Source of the DNA: an uncultured Rickettsiales bacterium
GTDB taxonomy: Bacteria > Pseudomonadota > Alphaproteobacteria > Rickettsiales > SXRF01
NCBI GenBank assembly: GCA_964518725.1
Contig: CAZFKP010000015.1
Coordinates: 1,450-65,449, forward strand
DNA length: 64,000 bases
Reading direction: 5' to 3'
The translations under genes were made by a program, and so were the position numbers. Below the pieces are notes generated by a model. It was not told the origin of the DNA. It worked only from the letters and a program-made list of their open reading frames with translations, and ran no database searches. Below are positions 2,647 to 40,861 of the stretch, one piece after another; positions within the stretch are counted from its first letter, which is position 1, and each line of letters opens with the position of its first letter.

Positions 2647-3405
2647 TTATTTACCGGGCAAGCGCGCTTCATTGAAGACGCAGATCACATCTCCCCCGTG
2701 GCGCAGGGTGAATTTGCTGGCAACACGCTCAACCACGATGAAATCGCCGCGTGTGCGGTAGTTGACCAGCGATTCGTTGCCTTTGTCATCGACCCAGAAG
2801 AAGGCCGGAACCTCGGCGTTTTTATCGCGGAACTGGAAGTAGGTGAACTCGCCATCGTCAAAGATGCGGATCGGCGCGGTGGTCTCTGGCCCTGCGATCG
2901 TGTAATTGAAGTTGTACTTCTCCGGATGTTCTTTGATATCGAGGACAGGAACCGCATCCAGCCCGCCGCCGGCCAGCGATTGCAGCTCGTCGCTATCCTG
3001 GTAGATAAAGCGCATAATGAACGTCATGTCCGGGTCGTTGATATCGTCGGTATCACGCGCATGCAGCTCGAACAGGTAGGTGTGCCTGTTGGTAATCAGC
3101 GTCATGTTGGTGGTCGCATCCTGCTCGATGGGCTTGAGGAACAGGCGGTTGCCGGTCGGGTTCATCATCCACGCCGTCGAGTCCCCCATCGAAATAGTTT
3201 GGATCGTCTCATCTTTGCCGAATTCAATCGAGGTCTGGTAGCGGTAATGGCCGGTGAATTTATAGACCTCGTCCGGCTGGTAAATCACCGTGCGTACCCG
3301 GTGGTCGGTTTTGATCGAGCGTGGCTCGCGCACCGCCCACGCCTCAGCGGAAAACAGCACGCAAGCGGCGGTGATGGTCATGGTGGCGAGGCGAAAAAAC
3401 GTCAT
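2647..3405 (-). CDS. virB9: VirB9/TrbG/CagX-family type IV secretion outer-membrane core protein
   Basis: 252 aa with a signal peptide. The N-domain ...VIYQPDEVYKFTGHYRYQTSIEFGKDETIQTISMGDSTAWMMNPTGNRLFLKP...TNMTLITNRHTYLFEL and the C-domain ...FTYFQFRDKNAEVPAFFWVDDKGNESLVNYR match the VirB9 pattern. Confidence 0.82.
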   Translation of the reverse strand: MTFFRLATMTITAACVLFSAEAWAVREPRSIKTDHRVRTVIYQPDEVYKFTGHYRYQTSIEFGKDETIQTISMGDSTAWMMNPTGNRLFLKPIEQDATTNMTLITNRHTYLFELHARDTDDINDPDMTFIMRFIYQDSDELQSLAGGGLDAVPVLDIKEHPEKYNFNYTIAGPETTAPIRIFDDGEFTYFQFRDKNAEVPAFFWVDDKGNESLVNYRTRGDFIVVERVASKFTLRHGGDVICVFNEARLPGK

Positions 3406-4121
3406 GGCGTGTCCTGAATTTTGCTGCTGTAGCGGGTGACAGTAAACGATACGGGATTCACCATACCAGTTTTTTTATCGATTTCAACGCCGCTGTAATC
3501 ATAGCTGATCGTGGCCTTATGGCGGCTCCTGCTCGACCCTTCCGCGCTGATCAGGGTTGCATCATACACCACCTCCACCGTATTGGCGGGTGACAGTAGC
3601 CGCTGCACCGATACCGGATCAATGATGCGCGCCGTGTGGCGCTGGTATTTCACCACCGGGCTATCCGGGTTGCCAGTCTGGATCATCCGCTGGTAGCCGG
3701 CGAACACTTCCGGCGTGGCATGGTGCTCGATGCCGCCGTAATTCCGTTCCAGCAGGTTGATGTTGTAGCCTTCGTAATGCGCGACGAATGTCTTGGCCAT
3801 GAAGAACAGCACGGCCTCATCGGTCGTCTGCTGATAGCTGCTCCGCAGCGGCGTGATGCTCGGCAGATCTTCCAGCACATCATTCAGCGCGTAGATAAAC
3901 GGCACCGGCCGCTTGAGCGGGTACAGCTCGCGCACCGCCATGACCGAGAACATCAGCGTCAGCAAGGCGACGGTGGTGACGAACACATAAAAATAGCGCT
4001 CGGACATCGGGTCGTTCACCGAGACGTCATACATGCTTTTTGCCTCGCGGAAATATTCCCCACTGCGTACTTTTTCCGCGATCTGGATATAATCATCCGG
4101 TGTGGGTTCTTTATATTTCAT
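3402..4121 (-). CDS. virB8: VirB8-family type IV secretion inner-membrane protein
   Basis: 239 aa. It has a cytoplasmic N-terminus, one TM helix (YFYVFVTTVALLTLMFSVMAV) and a periplasmic NTF2-like region of VirB8 length. Its stop overlaps the virB9 start (ATGA at 3402-3405). Confidence 0.75.
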   Translation of the reverse strand: MKYKEPTPDDYIQIAEKVRSGEYFREAKSMYDVSVNDPMSERYFYVFVTTVALLTLMFSVMAVRELYPLKRPVPFIYALNDVLEDLPSITPLRSSYQQTTDEAVLFFMAKTFVAHYEGYNINLLERNYGGIEHHATPEVFAGYQRMIQTGNPDSPVVKYQRHTARIIDPVSVQRLLSPANTVEVVYDATLISAEGSSRSRHKATISYDYSGVEIDKKTGMVNPVSFTVTRYSSKIQDTP

Positions 4122-4136
4122 AAAGCCGTTTTATTA

Positions 4137-4239
4137 TCATTGTCATCGCGAGCGAAGCGCGGCGATCCATCTTTCTTGCACGCGGTGGGATGCGAAGATG
4201 GATTGCCACGGAGACGTTGCCTCCTCGCAATGACGTAAT
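4137..4239. repeat. Nested-palindrome repeat element, copy A (intergenic)
   Basis: The termini catt-gtcatcgcgag... and ...ctcgcaatgacgtaatg are inverted repeats. The inner inverted repeat is gcgatccatc / gatggattgc. It is the same family as copies at 7234-7325 and 63858-63951, and is flanked by TTATTAT(CAT) direct repeats (4131-4140 and 4243-4252). Confidence 0.7.
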
Positions 4240-4305: not shown

Positions 4306-4437
4306 ATGGATGAATATATGTTGGTTGTCTGGGCTGCCTACGCCGTCGCCTTCCTGGTGCTGGGCGGCTGCACCTGGGTGAGCCTGCGCGGCTTGCGCGG
4401 TGCACAGCGCGTCCTATCCGCACTCGAACGCCAGTGA
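4306..4437 (+). CDS. ccmD: Heme exporter protein CcmD
   Basis: Small single-TM protein MDEYMLVVWAAYAVAFLVLGGCTWVSLRGLRGAQRVLSALERQ placed directly before ccmE. Alternative in-frame starts are at 4291 and 4255. Confidence 0.75.
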   Translation: MDEYMLVVWAAYAVAFLVLGGCTWVSLRGLRGAQRVLSALERQ

Positions 4438-4444
4438 TGCCGCC

Positions 4445-4885
4445 ATGAAGCCCAAACACCAGCGGCTCGTATTCGTGGTGGCAAGCGTTGCCTGCCTGTG
4501 CGCGGCGGTGTTGCTGACCATGCGTGCTTTTAAAGAAAACCTGGTCTATTTTTTCAGCCCAAGCGACATTGTTGCCATGCCGCCGAAGCCTGGCCAGGTG
4601 ATCCGTATTGGCGGGCTGGTAAAAACCGAAAGCCTCGAACATCTGCCGGGCAACCGGGTGGCATTCATCGTCACCGACGGGAAGGCCGAAATCGCTGTCG
4701 CCTATCAGGGCGCGCTGCCGGCGCTGTTCCGCGAGGGGCAAGGCGTTGTAGCAGAGGGAAAATTGCAGGATGGCGGTTTTTCCGCTACAACTATTCTTGC
4801 CAAGCACGATGAGAATTACATGCCAAAGGAAGTAGTGGACGCGCTCAAAAAGTCCGGGCACTGGGAAGGGCAGGATGCTCGCTGA
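4445..4885 (+). CDS. ccmE: Cytochrome c-type biogenesis heme chaperone CcmE
   Basis: MKPKHQRLVFVV... membrane anchor, OB-fold body and the heme-binding HDENY (HxxxY) motif. The ORF-track start at 4400 is a 5' extension. Confidence 0.93.
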   Translation: MKPKHQRLVFVVASVACLCAAVLLTMRAFKENLVYFFSPSDIVAMPPKPGQVIRIGGLVKTESLEHLPGNRVAFIVTDGKAEIAVAYQGALPALFREGQGVVAEGKLQDGGFSATTILAKHDENYMPKEVVDALKKSGHWEGQDAR

Positions 4886-6728
4886 AATCGCAGTATTCGC
4901 GTTGGCGCTGGCGCTTGCCCTGTCGCTCATCGGCGCTGGCTCGCTGGTTTCCGCCCGCCTGCACACGCTGCTGCAAGGCAGCGCACTGGTCGGCGCCCTG
5001 CTAGTGTTTGTGGCGTTCGTGATCCTGATTATCCTCCGGCTTGATTCCGATTTTACAGTCGCCAACGTTGCCGAACATTCCAACCACACCCTCCCCCTGC
5101 TCTACAAAGTCGCCGGAACATGGGGCAATCATGAAGGTTCCATGCTGCTGTGGGCGCTGGTAGTGTGCGGCTTCGGCGCGATCCTCTCCGCCCGCCACCC
5201 GCTGGCCGCCGCTGTGCAATCGCTGTTGGCTGCCGGGGTGCTGCTGTTTATCCTCGCCACCTCAAACCCGTTCGCCCGCATTTTCCCACCACCGCCTGAT
5301 GGCAGCATGCTGAACCCGTTGCTGCAGGATGTGGCGCTCGCCATGCACCCGCCGCTGCTGTATCTCGGCTATGTCGGGTTCTCGGCAGTGTTTTCACTGG
5401 CGGTCGCCGGGTTGATCACGAGGCAGATTGATGCGCGCTGGGCCACAACCGCCCAGCCATGGATCATGGCGGCGTGGGCATCACTCACCTGCGGCATTGC
5501 GCTTGGTAGCTGGTGGGCGTACCGCGAACTCGGCTGGGGCGGGTTCTGGTTCTGGGATCCGGTGGAAAACGCCTCGCTCCTGCCATGGCTTGCCGCCACG
5601 GCGCTGCTGCATTCCAACGTGGTGCTGAAAAAACGCGGCGCGCTGGCCGGGTGGGTGGCGTTGCTTGCCATCATCACCTTCGGACTCAGCCTTGTCAGCA
5701 CCTTCCTCGTGCGTAGTGGTGCCATCACCTCGGTGCACAGCTTTGCCAGCGATCCGGAGCGCGGGTTGTTTATCCTCGCCTACATCGCGCTGGTGGTGGG
5801 CGGCGCGCTGTGGCTCTATGCCGCGCATGTCCGCAGCCTGCCGCCGACCGCGCCGATGCGTCCCGCTTCCCGTGAAGGGGTGATCGTCATCAATAATTTG
5901 TTCCTGCTCACGGCCTGCGCCACGGTGTTGCTCGGCACCATTTACCCGATGCTCGCCGAAGCGATCGGTGGTGGCAGTGTCAGCGTCGGTGCACCGTTTT
6001 ACCATCGAACCTTCCTGCCGTTGATGGCACTGCCATTGTTTTTTGCTGGGCTAGCCCCTTTTCTGCCGTGGAAAAAAGCGGCGCCCCTTTCTGCCCTTCG
6101 CCGTGCATGGCCGGGGCTTGCAGCAGCCTGCGCCGCCGCCACGGTTGTCATGGCCACGATCCATACTGAAGCGGTGCTCGCCGCTGCGAGCCTCGCCCTT
6201 GCCGGATTCATGATGGTGGCAAGCGCGCAGTGGCTGGCCGCCGGGAAGTGGCGCCTGCCTGCAAACTGGCCGGTGTTCCTTGGGCATAGCGGCGCGGCAC
6301 TACTGGTGATCGGCATCACCGGCGCTGGGTTGTGGGGAACACAGGTGGAGCGGAATGTAAACATGGGCGATACGCTCTCTATTGCTGGCTATGACGTGAA
6401 TGTGGTGCGGCTCGGCACCATCCACACACCGAATTATGATGCCACCCAGGTGACGCTCGATGTCACCCGCGCCGGCCACACCATCACCCAACTGCAACCG
6501 GAAGCGCGCCGCTACGGCATCCGCGACACCACCACCAGCGAAGCGGAAATTTATTCCACCGCCGCCTATGATTTGTACGCGGTGGTCGGTGCCGCAACCA
6601 GCGAAGGCGAAGTGGCGCTGCGGCTCTATCATAAACCTGCAGTGAGCTTCTTATGGCTCGGGGCAGCGTTCATCACGGCCGGGGGCATCCTGTCGGCGTG
6701 GCTTGCCGGACGGAGGAAATACCCATGA
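4875..6728 (+). CDS. ccmF: Cytochrome c heme lyase subunit CcmF
   Basis: 617-aa polytopic membrane protein with the WWD motif WGGFWFWDPVEN. Confidence 0.95.
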   Translation: MLAEIAVFALALALALSLIGAGSLVSARLHTLLQGSALVGALLVFVAFVILIILRLDSDFTVANVAEHSNHTLPLLYKVAGTWGNHEGSMLLWALVVCGFGAILSARHPLAAAVQSLLAAGVLLFILATSNPFARIFPPPPDGSMLNPLLQDVALAMHPPLLYLGYVGFSAVFSLAVAGLITRQIDARWATTAQPWIMAAWASLTCGIALGSWWAYRELGWGGFWFWDPVENASLLPWLAATALLHSNVVLKKRGALAGWVALLAIITFGLSLVSTFLVRSGAITSVHSFASDPERGLFILAYIALVVGGALWLYAAHVRSLPPTAPMRPASREGVIVINNLFLLTACATVLLGTIYPMLAEAIGGGSVSVGAPFYHRTFLPLMALPLFFAGLAPFLPWKKAAPLSALRRAWPGLAAACAAATVVMATIHTEAVLAAASLALAGFMMVASAQWLAAGKWRLPANWPVFLGHSGAALLVIGITGAGLWGTQVERNVNMGDTLSIAGYDVNVVRLGTIHTPNYDATQVTLDVTRAGHTITQLQPEARRYGIRDTTTSEAEIYSTAAYDLYAVVGAATSEGEVALRLYHKPAVSFLWLGAAFITAGGILSAWLAGRRKYP

Positions 6729-7222
6729 AATTCGCACCGCTTATCGCCTTGTTCCTGATCTGCGCGCTGCTCGCCTATGGGCTGGTCGGCAAGAGCAGTA
6801 CCCCAACCCCATCGCCGCTTATCGGCAAGCCGCTGCCGGCCTTCACGGTCGGCGACCGGAACCTCGACGACCTGCTCGACGGACACACGGTGGTGCTGAA
6901 TGTCTTTGCCAGTTGGTGCGCCCCCTGCGCGCTCGAACATCCGCAATTGATGACGCTAAAAGCGCAGGTGCCGATCATCGGCATCGCCTGGAAAAACAAG
7001 CCGGGCGAAGTCACCGCATGGCTTACACGGCACGGCAACCCGTATGCCTCGCTGCTGATGGATGAGATCGGAGAGTCGACCATGCCGCTTGGGCTAACCG
7101 GCGTCCCGGAAACATTCGTCATCGCCCCGGACGGAATTGTCGCCTACCATACGGCGCAGCCAATTACCGCTGAATTGTTGGCAAGCGATATCCTGCCGCT
7201 GATTGAAAGGCTGGAGCCATGA
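6725..7222 (+). CDS. ccmG: Thiol:disulfide interchange protein CcmG/DsbE
   Basis: MKFAPLIALFLICALL anchor, thioredoxin fold with the WCAPC active site and the GVPETF motif. The start overlaps the ccmF stop. Confidence 0.9.
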   Translation: MKFAPLIALFLICALLAYGLVGKSSTPTPSPLIGKPLPAFTVGDRNLDDLLDGHTVVLNVFASWCAPCALEHPQLMTLKAQVPIIGIAWKNKPGEVTAWLTRHGNPYASLLMDEIGESTMPLGLTGVPETFVIAPDGIVAYHTAQPITAELLASDILPLIERLEP

Positions 7223-7683
7223 AATACAATCCCGTCATTGCGAGCGTAGCGCGGCAATCCATTTTTGCCTTCTCCGGCGTGAAAAGAGGATGGATCGCCG
7301 CGTCGCTGGCACTCCTCGCGATGACATTTTTCTCAACGCCCGCTGCCGCGCTCACCATCGACCAGCCGCTTCCCAACCCGGCGCAGGAAACCCGCGCCCG
7401 CGCGCTGTTCCAGGAGCTGCGCTGTGTCGTCTGCCAGGGCGAGAGCGTGGCCGATTCCCCGGCGGATGTCGCCGCCGATATGCGCCGCGCCGTGCGGCAG
7501 GCGGTCGCCCGGGGAGAAACCGACGAGACCATAAAACAAACGTTTGTGGCGCATTACGGGGAACGGGTGCTGATGCTGCCTAGCTTCCGCGAAGGCAATC
7601 TGCCGCTCTGGCTTGCGCCACTCGTATGCCTGCTGGTGGGGGGTGTGTTTGCATGGCGCCGCCTGTTTGGGAGGCAGTCATGA
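7219..7683 (+). CDS. ccmH: Cytochrome c-type biogenesis protein CcmH
   Basis: LRCVVCQGESVADS (LRCxxCQ) motif and a C-terminal TM helix. The ATG at 7219 overlaps the ccmG stop (ATGA) and follows a ggag RBS. Codons 6-36 are encoded by repeat copy B. Confidence 0.85.
   Translation: MKYNPVIASVARQSIFAFSGVKRGWIAASLALLAMTFFSTPAAALTIDQPLPNPAQETRARALFQELRCVVCQGESVADSPADVAADMRRAVRQAVARGETDETIKQTFVAHYGERVLMLPSFREGNLPLWLAPLVCLLVGGVFAWRRLFGRQS
7234..7325. repeat. Nested-palindrome repeat element, copy B (inside the ccmH 5' coding region)
   Basis: gtcattgcgagcgtagcgcggcaatccat...ggatggatcgcc...ctcctcgcgatgac has the same terminal and inner inverted repeats as copies A and C. Confidence 0.7.
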
Positions 7684-8291
7684 TCCAGCTGGCCGCCGCG
7701 CTTGTCCTGCTCCTTCTGATAACACTGGCGCTGTTGCTGTTCCCGTTGCGGCACGAACGCAGGCTGTGCATCCTTGCTGCGCTGGCCGTTACATTCGTGG
7801 CGGGCGGGATGTATGCGCTGGTCGGCGCACCGCGTGTGGTGCCGCTGGTCGCACAATATCATGCGGAGGTTGCGGCGCTGGAAAAGAACATCCAGACCAC
7901 CCGTGCCCTGGTGCAGGCCAACCCAAAGAACCTTGAAGCATGGCTCACACTGTCGCAGGCGCTGATGGACAAAGGCGATTTCGCCGCCGCCAGCGAGGGA
8001 TTCAAGCAGGCGGTGCTGCTTTCCAAAGGCCACCCTCGGATTATCGCCGCCTATGCCGAAGCCCTCATCCTCCAGCAGGGCGGGATGGTGCCGCCGCAGG
8101 CCAAGAAGTCCATCGACATCGCGCTGATGATCGACCCGCAATTGCCGCTGGCGCGCTATTACAATGCGGTGTGGCTGCTGCAGGAAGGTCGCAACGACGA
8201 AGCCATGCAGGAAATGAAAGCGCTCTACCGCGAGCTGCCGGACGATTCAAACTTAAAGAAGCGGATGAAAGCGCAGATCGGCGCGAAGTGA
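7680..8291 (+). CDS. ccmI: CcmI/CycH-like TPR protein (short form)
   Basis: N-terminal TM helices followed by TPR-like repeats (...NPKNLEAWLTLSQALMDKGDFAAASEGFKQAV...). It sits last in the ccm operon and its ATG overlaps the ccmH stop. At 203 aa it is shorter than the CcmI proteins I recall. Confidence 0.6.
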   Translation: MIQLAAALVLLLLITLALLLFPLRHERRLCILAALAVTFVAGGMYALVGAPRVVPLVAQYHAEVAALEKNIQTTRALVQANPKNLEAWLTLSQALMDKGDFAAASEGFKQAVLLSKGHPRIIAAYAEALILQQGGMVPPQAKKSIDIALMIDPQLPLARYYNAVWLLQEGRNDEAMQEMKALYRELPDDSNLKKRMKAQIGAK

Positions 8292-40246: not shown

Positions 40247-40861
40247 TTAGTGAGCGCCGCCGTTCGGTGAGGTGGCAATGGTTTTCAGCACCTCGTAATG
40301 CTTGTTCAGCATACTGCGGCCAGCGCCGGAAATAACACTGCGCTCCAAGTGCTGGATGGTGGTTTTTGCCTGATCGAGTTCCATCTTCAGGTAGGTTCGC
40401 ATATTCTCCAAATCCTGCAGCATGAAATAACGCTCCAGGTGCACCCGTACGCGCAAGGCAACCTCTTCAAGATCGAGCGGCTTGTTGAGGAAATCATCCG
40501 CACCGCATGTCAGTGCCCGCAATTTAGTGTCACGGTCTTCCAAAGCTGTCTGGACGATGATCGGCATATGGGCAGCATTGGCGTCGCCGCGAATCTGCTC
40601 GCAATAACCAAACCCATCCAGATTCGGCATCATAATATCAAGCAACACCAGATCCGGCATCTGACGATAGGTTTTTTTCAGCGCATCCACGCCATCCACC
40701 GCAGTTTCTAGGTTGTTGTACCCGGAAGCCGTCAATACCGAACAGATAAGCTTGACGTTAAATGGCGCATCGTCAACAACCAGAATGCGAGCCCCTGCAA
40801 AGCGTAAGGCAGGAAACATCTTTGATTTTGTACCAACAATCGGAAAAACTGAGTCGCTCAT
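40247..40861 (-). CDS. Response regulator (REC domain plus C-terminal coiled-coil, no recognised output domain)
   Basis: ILVVDDAPFNVKL..., the phospho-acceptor context DLVLLDIMMPNLDG, then PIIVQTAL and FLNKP. Confidence 0.85.
   Translation of the reverse strand: MSDSVFPIVGTKSKMFPALRFAGARILVVDDAPFNVKLICSVLTASGYNNLETAVDGVDALKKTYRQMPDLVLLDIMMPNLDGFGYCEQIRGDANAAHMPIIVQTALEDRDTKLRALTCGADDFLNKPLDLEEVALRVRVHLERYFMLQDLENMRTYLKMELDQAKTTIQHLERSVISGAGRSMLNKHYEVLKTIATSPNGGAH

Follow-up and report, generated by a model that had tools for sequence, protein, structure and literature searches.

A CGTC-type palindromic repeat dimer that very probably encodes the hydrophobic core of the CcmH signal peptide in an uncultured alphaproteobacterium

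Palindromic repeats that lie in frame within genes are known from Rickettsia and from censuses of repetitive extragenic palindromic (REP) sequences, and N-terminal cases have usually been dismissed as wrong start codons. Here we describe a 92-nt imperfect palindrome (copy B, positions 7234-7325, with the termini GTCATTGCGAG...CTCGCGATGAC) at the 5′ end of the cytochrome c maturation gene ccmH, in a stretch of 64,000 nt (the window) from an uncultured alphaproteobacterium with 53% G+C. Copy B comprises two REP units joined as an inverted dimer, and comparison with related genomes indicates that it is very probably translated from the ATG at 7219 as the hydrophobic region (h-region) of the CcmH signal peptide.

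The closest described system is the CGTC-tagged REP superfamily (Di Nocera, De Gregorio and Rocco, 2013, BMC Genomics 14:522; PMC3733652), which includes RPE-4 and RPE-6 of R. conorii and dRS3 of Neisseria. As characterized in that census, a unit has an unpaired CGTC or TGTC tag (CCTC is a further variant), a stem starting with AT and a CCA tail, with stems of 8-9 bp and loops of 4-5 nt in the families described. Units occur mostly as inverted dimers with a spacer of 20-100 bp, and such dimers can fold as a single long hairpin. The elements are reported as predominantly alphaproteobacterial, with occurrences in other phyla, and as usually lying just after open reading frames (ORFs); no associated transposase is reported in that account. 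Its in-frame intragenic copies encode 20-30 residues of the form V-I-x...x-M-T or S-x-R...R-x-D (e.g. VIPAKAGI...IPAFAGMT) with examples from tRNA synthetases, R. conorii ccmF and protein N-termini, the last being treated as probable misannotated start calls. According to the same source, bulged or unusual units may have been missed by the census.

The ccmH repeat resembles these elements in most respects. Copy B has the tags CGTC at 7233-7236 and TGTC at 7326-7323 (minus strand), stems starting with AT (ATTGC...GCAAT and ATCGC...GCGAT) and, like the arms of the copy in a relative (L001, GCA_033763575.1), CCA tails; it is an inverted dimer with a spacer of 29 nt, while another relative (L129) has a single unit. 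The unit core is ATTGC-GAG-(variable GC-rich mini stem with GNA loop)-GAA/GCG-GCAAT, in contrast to the continuous stem of 8-9 bp given for the CGTC families. The peptides in the supplement of PMC3733652 imply ATTCCCGC.. for CGTC-1, ATTGCCGGG.. for CGTC-3 and ATTCCGTGG.. for CGTC-4, and the peptide of the window repeat, ATTGCGAG.. (VIA[SR]...), equals none of those listed for these three, as judged by peptides and not by consensus sequences. We file the repeat as CGTC-type in architecture, without placing it in one of the named families CGTC-1 to CGTC-4. The analogy to Rickettsia drawn in a preliminary description of this stretch appears apt, as tag, AT-start stem and CCA tail are those of the superfamily that holds RPE-4 and RPE-6; the link is one of shared architecture as reported in PMC3733652.

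As in the case of the Rickettsia palindromic elements, the window repeat forms in-frame inserts in conserved genes that are left intact (ccmH, alaS). Ogata and colleagues reportedly described RPE-1-type palindromes in frame in essential genes that were not destroyed by them, and N-terminal copies are said to be expressed. RPE-1 is longer, unrelated in sequence and confined to Rickettsia, whereas the window repeat spans several phyla. Like miniature inverted-repeat transposable elements (MITEs), e.g. the Correia elements of Neisseria, the repeat is short and non-autonomous, has terminal inverted repeats and is sometimes co-transcribed or fused with genes. MITEs mobilized by DDE transposases make target-site duplications; because none were found in the family (see below), we rejected a classical MITE identity. 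In form, copy B also resembles REPINs (REP doublets forming hairpins; Bertels and Rainey, 2011; PMC3116915), which likewise combine two inverted REP units and a spacer in a hairpin of ~90-110 nt, are present in many copies per genome and show no target-site duplication. However, REPINs carry GTAG-type tags, are tied to a REP-flanked RAYT (IS200/IS605-like) gene and were described as lineage-specific and extragenic (PMC3116915), whereas the window tag is CGTC and the family is found in multiple phyla with copies in genes. Copy B is therefore REPIN-like in form but cannot be called a member of the REPIN-RAYT system, since it has the wrong tag and any RAYT gene could lie beyond the 64 kb covered here. 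Altogether, the locus is a clear example of a known phenomenon and not a new kind of element.

The repeat in ccmH and its reading frame

The palindromic repeat in the window is real. The preliminary description had recognized three copies (A, B and C), with copy B at 7234-7325, and this was confirmed by pattern search, by an arm profile and by the hairpins. The copies are ~92 nt long (cores 4142-4234, 7234-7325 and 63858-63951) and have the terminal pattern GTCATYGCGAG...CTCGCRATGAC. A 13-nt terminal pattern gave 12 matches with ≤2 mismatches compared to 3.2 expected, and none of 100 shuffles reached 12. The arm profile, which was built from 230 arms of other genomes only, found five of the six window arms with E values of 1e-10 to 9e-5, whereas the right arm of copy C, which ends in GTCGC, reached only E 0.31. 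Folding of the copies yields a single long hairpin in each case (-37 to -46 kcal/mol; z = -3.5 to -5.0 versus shuffles), that of copy B having -43.5 kcal/mol and z -3.9, with both arms matched by the profile. A weak solitary profile match within a gene (40584-40605, E 0.03), to which no partner arm belongs, was treated as chance. The features of the ccmH locus are listed below, with ↓ marking signal-peptide cleavage here and throughout.

6725-7222, plus strand: ccmG (thioredoxin-like; Pfam Redoxin/AhpC-TSA), whose stop codon ends 10 nt 5′ of the element
7206-7216, plus strand: Shine-Dalgarno-like GAAAGG (7206-7211) and GGAG (7213-7216), unpaired in the mRNA fold
7219-7222, plus strand: ATGA, overlap of ccmH start and ccmG stop (translational coupling), conserved in relatives
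7219-7683, plus strand: ccmH (CcmH/CycL type), 154 aa (ORF list; Pfam PF03918; 108 homologues)
7219-7350, plus strand: inferred signal-peptide region, residues 1-44, with predicted cleavage after A42-A43-A44 and before L45-T-I-D (orthologue alignment; n/h-region table)
7233-7326, plus strand: copy B, inverted dimer of two CGTC-type REP units with tag bases, core 7234-7325 (repeat and pattern searches; fold; arm profile)
7233-7261, plus strand: left REP unit, short, with CGTC tag, ATTGC-GAGCGTAGCGCG-GCAAT and CCA tail (arm profile E 7e-8; family arm consensus)
7262-7290, plus strand: spacer (loop) between the units, diverged between window and L001
7279-7281, plus strand: in-frame GTG in the spacer, alternative start giving MKRGWIAASLALLAMTFFSTPAAA↓LT (sequence; n/h-region table)
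7291-7326, minus strand: right REP unit, long and inverted, read on the minus strand with TGTC tag, ATCGC...GCGAT and CCA tail (arm profile E 9e-5)
7321-7323, plus strand: in-frame ATG in the right terminal repeat, rejected start without Shine-Dalgarno-like motif (n/h-region table)
7417-7437, plus strand: LRCVVCQ heme-handling motif of mature CcmH (orthologue alignment)

Copy B starts at codon 5/6 of ccmH, in frame, and codons 6-36 lie within the element, reading VIASVARQSIFAFSGVKRGWIAASLALLAMT. The assignment of these codons to the repeat in the preliminary description was correct, but the NP that it prefixed to the peptide corresponds to codons 4-5, outside the core, and the element with its tags spans 7233-7326. 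The left unit, whose tag and tail are unpaired in the DNA fold, encodes (P)VIASVARQS; the 29-nt spacer encodes IFAFSGVKRG, with K22-R23 immediately preceding the hydrophobic core; and the right unit encodes WIAASLALLAMT on the plus strand.

Comparison with other CcmH proteins showed that 23 of 25 aligned orthologues begin with M-[KR]-x, followed by an uncharged stretch of 12-22 residues and A-x-A↓L(T/S), and a plain signal peptide of 17-24 residues is found in almost all of the ~200 inspected CcmH homologues. Among the aligned orthologues, an insert of ~30 residues after M-K-Y is present only in the window protein and in P0002 of L001, in agreement with the earlier idea of a repeat recruited into CcmH. 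The element measures 92 nt in the window and 86 nt in L001, and the frame is kept in both. The AAA↓L of the window CcmH aligns with the cleavage sites of the orthologues. The cleavage site PAAA↓LT (c-region) thus appears to be ancestral, with the element supplying the h-region core and not the whole signal, and mature CcmH would therefore be unchanged. The preliminary description had taken the element for the export signal as such; this holds for the h-region core, which the right arm would provide, but not for the c-region. When the element is removed in silico, the remaining MKYNP plus FFSTPAAA is shorter and more polar than every orthologue signal, and the element-encoded part is therefore presumably needed now.

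The start at 7219 that the preliminary description had proposed on account of the ATGA overlap gains from the comparison. The 4-nt overlap of ccmG and ccmH is preserved in relatives without the element (L122, L124 and L125) and is also found in L001, L126 and L129; ATG 7219 therefore seems ancestral and the element lies inside the coding sequence. The GGAG named earlier as ribosome-binding site is present, but it is only 2 nt away from ATG 7219 and occurs in the window only, whereas the Shine-Dalgarno-like motif kept in relatives is GAAAGG. In the predicted mRNA fold, the Shine-Dalgarno region and the AUG (7206-7232) are unpaired and the hairpin begins at +15. The three candidate starts are compared with the orthologues below, using heuristic figures from a simple purpose-written script and not from a trained predictor (residues before cleavage; charge of the n-region; uncharged stretch in residues; best hydropathy over 9 residues).

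Orthologues: 17-24; mostly +1 to +3; 12-22; 2.4-3.5
ATG 7219: 44; +4; 24; 2.48
GTG 7279: 24; +2; 24; 2.48
ATG 7321 (MTFFSTPAAA): 10; 0; 13; 1.3

A start at ATG 7321 would make the element a non-coding ccmG-ccmH hairpin and the 5′ part of the gene a misannotated extension. The terminal repeat GCGATGAC brings this ATG with it, in frame in the window as well as in L001 and L129, and a hairpin just behind ccmG would fit the usual REP position after ORFs and the caution in PMC3733652 that many N-terminal REPs reflect wrong starts. Its product, however, has too few residues before cleavage, no basic residue in the n-region and a hydropathy below the orthologue range, and no Shine-Dalgarno-like motif precedes the ATG. 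CcmH of the system I cytochrome c maturation pathway requires export of its LRCxxC domain, which also speaks against this start, and in an independently invaded CcmH gene (L128, see below) only Y-A separate the element from the cleavage site, so that nothing downstream could serve as signal. As a start at 7321 leaves no usable signal peptide, it was rejected and we consider it very improbable. The case of a functional signal read from this ATG, which the preliminary description had named as a counter-argument, is not borne out by these values.

The starts at 7219 and 7279 would both use the right arm WIAASLALLAMT as h-region core. With GTG 7279, the left arm and half of the spacer would form an untranslated intercistronic hairpin and the signal MKRGWIAASLALLAMTFFSTPAAA would rely on the right arm. 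This would give a textbook signal of orthologue-like length and n-region charge; the L001 spacer also contains an in-frame GTG, giving MSCIKARWIATACGLAMT..., and the short N-terminus that directly precedes the right unit in L129 fits such a start. However, neither the window GTG nor that of L001 is preceded by a Shine-Dalgarno-like motif, both lie in the hairpin stem or loop, and they are not aligned, since L001 has ATT at the position of 7279 and its own GTG four codons upstream. Furthermore, it is the ATGA overlap and GAAAGG, and not a GTG, that are conserved across relatives, and the frame from 7219 is open in the window and L001 despite the length difference of 6 nt. We therefore prefer the start at 7219, because of the conserved overlap and GAAAGG, the lack of a Shine-Dalgarno-like motif before 7279 and the unpaired Shine-Dalgarno/AUG region, and regard initiation at GTG 7279 as quite unlikely.

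Insertion history and recurrence at the ccmG-ccmH junction

Three related genomes carry an insert at the same site, the window and L001 having the dimer and L129 a lone right unit. The 86-nt dimer of L001 begins at the same nucleotide as copy B, 15 nt after the A of the ATG, with the same orientation and frame. L129 (P0229) has just the right long unit, which follows immediately on the ATG of the ATGA overlap; the predicted signal is MTTR-WIATSLMLLAMT-FLPATATA↓LTVD, in which the REP unit would unambiguously be the h-region. The ccmH gene of L122 has no element. A tree of concatenated CcmF, CcmG, CcmH and CcmI gave (window,(L129,(L001,L122))), with bootstrap values of 96% for the four-taxon clade, 100% for (L129,L001,L122) and 90% for (L001,L122) and quartet support of ≥99%.

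The simplest history, which we consider probable, is a single old insertion, after which L129 lost the left half and L122 the whole element, since site, orientation, frame and long-unit details are shared. That the window, L001 and L129 were each hit separately at one hot spot is doubtful but carries an appreciable probability. The nested position of the element-free L122 in the tree speaks for this, and so does the young appearance of the REP unit cores, of which 53 of 55 positions (96%) are identical between window and L001, whereas the ccm genes are 66% identical and their third codon positions 48% (P about 4e-8 versus the REP cores). Separate insertions in the same gene region do happen, as described below for L126 and L128. 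On the other side, all three copies agree in frame and in orientation, with the short unit on the left and the long one on the right; window and L001 have the same left junction, the right end is equally far from the cleavage codon in window and L129, and these two share long-unit details. In addition, the identity of copy B with copy A of the same genome (70-73%) does not exceed that with the L001 copy (72%), although this lack of a difference does not settle the choice between old insertion and re-insertion. The constancy of the cores requires one of three causes: the nucleic acid itself is under selection, the units were converted by other copies, or they were re-inserted recently.

In a further alternative, the hairpin was kept for a cis-acting role (ccmG:ccmH ratio, stability or processing of the operon mRNA, or protein binding) and coding is secondary. 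The unit cores are indeed conserved at the nucleotide level beyond what the amino acids of a signal peptide need, and the third positions of ATC GCC and CTC CTC GCG are identical in three genomes. A T-run (ATTTTTC, 7326-7332), which also encodes F37-F38, follows directly 3′ of the hairpin, and effects of REPs on mRNA stability and termination have been reported (PMC3733652). Yet L129 keeps one unit without partner, so that the long hairpin is not the conserved entity there, and L122 and most relatives do without the element. No terminator was called at the element by a scan whose loop limit leaves out long hairpins, no Rfam family matched it, and gene conversion would explain the unit conservation equally well. 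A primarily cis-acting role therefore appears unlikely, and translation of copy B from 7219 as the signal h-region is the reading we retain.

A scan of the N-termini of all 108 homologues from the first search revealed two more CcmH genes with an element. P0020 (L126) reads MMQKDIH-RHYERSDAAIRSTFRRICFMDCFALLAMT-LLLICSPAIA↓F, the middle part being the element; it is a member of the window family whose CGTC tag lies 21 nt behind the ATG and whose left arm is read in a different frame. In P0028 (L128), the N-terminus is MNNI-VIPANVGIHALILACWLTWIPAFAGMT-YA↓LTIE and contains a CGTC-1-type dimer that begins 11 nt after the ATG. The insertions in L126 and L128 are independent events. A profile of the four element-bearing N-termini detected no further full dimer among 101 new CcmH proteins, only the half-element of P0229. 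All ccmH elements begin 4-17 nt past the ccmG stop, and their right arm is always in the A/G-M-T frame, the other two right-arm frames giving a TGA stop or R-N-D.

This position matches the preference of the family, in which 36% of copies lie ≤20 nt from the 3′ end of a coding-like ORF compared to 3% of random positions, a control that covered more than intergenic DNA, and such proximity may reflect selection rather than targeting. The preference agrees with the REP placement reported in PMC3733652. In L124, whose ccmH is element-free, a full family dimer (3397-3475) lies 8 nt past the ccmI stop at the contig end; the family is therefore present in this lineage too, again just after an ORF. 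In the most distant syntenic relative, L123, CcmH starts with MRGWIAA (CGC GGG TGG ATT GCG GCA; 5001-5030), which resembles the KRGWIAA at the junction of spacer and right unit in the window, and the DNA includes the tail-stem motif TGGATTGC. The arm profile found nothing at L123 5001-5030, and the resemblance is either a very old decayed remnant or chance.

The uniformity of the cores in the face of 66% identity of the genes, together with at least three independent insertions of CGTC-type REPs at the 5′ end of ccmH, raises the possibility that the ccmH REP units either are selected as nucleic acid while coding or are moved by a machinery that targets the nucleotides after stop codons. In this view, the units would be more than a tolerated passenger, and their cores would have stayed almost the same since a time before these lineages split. 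We put this forward as an improbable but consequential option, to which we return at the end.

The repeat family, other copies and gene context

With the pattern GTCATYGCGAG-N6-20-GCRATCCA-N35-65-CTCGCRATGAC and one genome per species, at least 120 stretches were found in other genomes. The matches listed are distributed over many Alphaproteobacteria and other phyla, among them Bradyrhizobium, Sphingomonadales, Rhodospirillales, Rickettsiales, Legionellales/Coxiellaceae, Chlorobaculum and Opitutae, and the copies are 73-108 nt long. Each arm has an outer stem of 5 bp, followed inward by an internal loop rich in purines, in which GAG faces GAA/GCG/GTG, and by an inner stem of 2-9 bp whose GNA loop mostly measures 3 nt. 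The short type is CGTC-ATTGC-GAGCGNAGCGAA-GCAAT-CCA, and the long type has the same ends around GAG-GAGCGAAGCGACGAA. In 266 arms from other genomes, GTCAT is preceded by C in 89% of cases and by T in 9%. The outer stem ATYGC/GCRAT covaries, with T-A 214, C-G 8, T-G 5 and C-A 3 at its third position, and the inner stem-loop does so extensively, with 50 distinct stem pairs and mostly GNA loops. GCRATCCA is present in all arms of the window copies and of L001, but as it is also part of the scan pattern its frequency in the family is not independent evidence. The short arm contains GCGNAGC, with N being A, C, T and G in 40, 37, 13 and 9 copies of CGNAGCGAA, respectively (arms of loci L002-L121). 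We take this to be the very stable d(GCGNAGC) mini-hairpin with a GNA triloop, which would suit recognition as single-stranded DNA.

Direct repeats of 2-8 nt (offsets 0-4) were not enriched around 133 copies in comparison to shuffled pairings. The TTATTATCAT repeat, a direct repeat near both ends of copy A, and the ATATTT repeat of the L001 copy were considered as target-site duplications and rejected, as they are not a family property. No Rfam family matches the element (gathering thresholds for the whole window, E up to 1 for 7100-7450), and literature text searches with the terminal repeat and typical translated peptides returned unrelated primer matches or nothing. None of the 133 copies in other genomes lies within an ORF that has coding-like GC periodicity on both sides, a test to which N-terminal cases are invisible. 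The two other copies in the window are located as follows.

4141-4235, no strand assigned: copy A, between the divergent virB8 (minus strand) and ccmD (plus strand) (pattern search, hairpin, arm profile)
63857-63952, plus strand: copy C, in frame within alaS (pattern search, hairpin, arm profile, Pfam)

The copy A site is empty in L001, where the syntenic spacer of 43 nt (3040-3084) lacks a copy. Copy C lies in the alaS linker after the editing domain, 3′ of EEIEKLLS, and contributes 31 residues in the S-L-R...R-N-D frame. At this site, the nearest AlaRS orthologues show a coiled-coil-like stretch that is similar in length but unrelated, and ~46 residues are missing from more distant ones. The window ends 48 nt past the tagged copy C (49 nt past the core), and alaS is cut.

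The ccmD-E-F-G-H-I operon occupies 4306-8291 on the plus strand. CcmD, CcmE, ccmG (Redoxin) and the tetratricopeptide repeat (TPR) protein CcmI were recognized by Pfam, and CcmF (4875-6728) was called by synteny with L001, where Pfam marks CcmF. CcmH matches PF03918 (E 1.5e-36, 125 bits, residues 33-152), the profile alignment beginning only at residue 33. Its LRCxxC motif is formed by residues 67-72, with R, C, V and C as invariant columns of the orthologue alignment, and PF03918, this motif and the ccmDEFGHI operon identify it as CcmH/CycL of system I. Type IV secretion genes for VirB8 and CagX on the minus strand adjoin the operon; these virB8 and CagX/VirB9-like genes (2647-4121) are divergent from it. 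The same arrangement is kept in L001 (1557-3040) and L123 (1-1606), and the Ccm proteins of these two are only ~40-57% identical to those of the window. A sigma-70-like match (TTGAAA-16 nt-TACAAT, 10/12) spans the ccmG/ccmH junction at 7203-7230, just 5′ of the element.

Proposed explanation and significance

We propose that REP dimers land or persist just after stop codons, as copy B might have done 10 nt past the ccmG stop. Because the ccmH start overlaps this stop in the ATGA, the position just after it would correspond to codon 5/6 of ccmH and thus place the element in the signal-peptide codons. Copy B may have survived there for several reasons: it sits in the sole frame (V-I-A ... A-M-T) in which the right arm is an uncharged hydrophobic stretch, signal peptides tolerate insertions and are a rare coding context able even to use one, and the signal would be removed at the ancestral AAA↓LT, leaving mature CcmH unaltered. 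Translation would most likely start at ATG 7219, coupled to ccmG termination, and run through the whole element. The resulting 44-residue signal would have a long basic n-region from the left arm and spacer, and an h-region composed of the right arm WIAASLALLAMT and FFSTPAAA, a shortened remnant of the original h/c-region. This remnant would now be too short and polar alone, so that the element-encoded part became necessary.

Several points weigh against this explanation. The repeat with its family, its place and frame, its lack in almost all orthologues, its occurrence at one site in two relatives and the separate cases in other CcmH genes are shown by the sequences, but start codon, export function, cleavage site and order of events are inferred from comparison, and the n/h-region figures are heuristic. 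The hairpin of -43 kcal/mol from +15 could interfere with translation at the initiation or elongation stage. As several frames on both strands are open across the element, openness alone is weak evidence. The window arms do not have the stem and loop sizes given for the CGTC families in PMC3733652, single arms fold no better than shuffles, and the preference for ORF ends is subject to the broad control mentioned above. Taken together with the conserved overlap, the orthologue signals and the L129 unit, we still regard the translation of copy B from 7219 as signal h-region as very probable.

Four aspects of the locus appear to be new, in a modest but concrete way. The comparison argues for a truly coding N-terminal REP that would form the h-region of an essential export signal; REP dimers have apparently made recurrent use of this gene region, at least three separate times; the orthologous copy seems to occur in three states across relatives (dimer, single unit, absent); and the unit sequences show a constancy that is hard to reconcile with the divergence of the genes. 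If the REP units are selected as nucleic acid while coding, they might be bound by a conserved factor or set the ccmG/ccmH coupling, and under this or the targeting alternative the ccmG-ccmH junction would be a natural test site for the movement of CGTC REPs lacking a transposase. For annotation, the lesson is that cutting such N-termini back to a downstream ATG would delete the signal peptide. The ccmH locus offers a tractable place to study insertion, decay and uniformity of CGTC REPs without known transposase, and, as the original h-core appears to have shrunk, it may represent a small, clean case of a selfish repeat that was made indispensable by a neutral ratchet.

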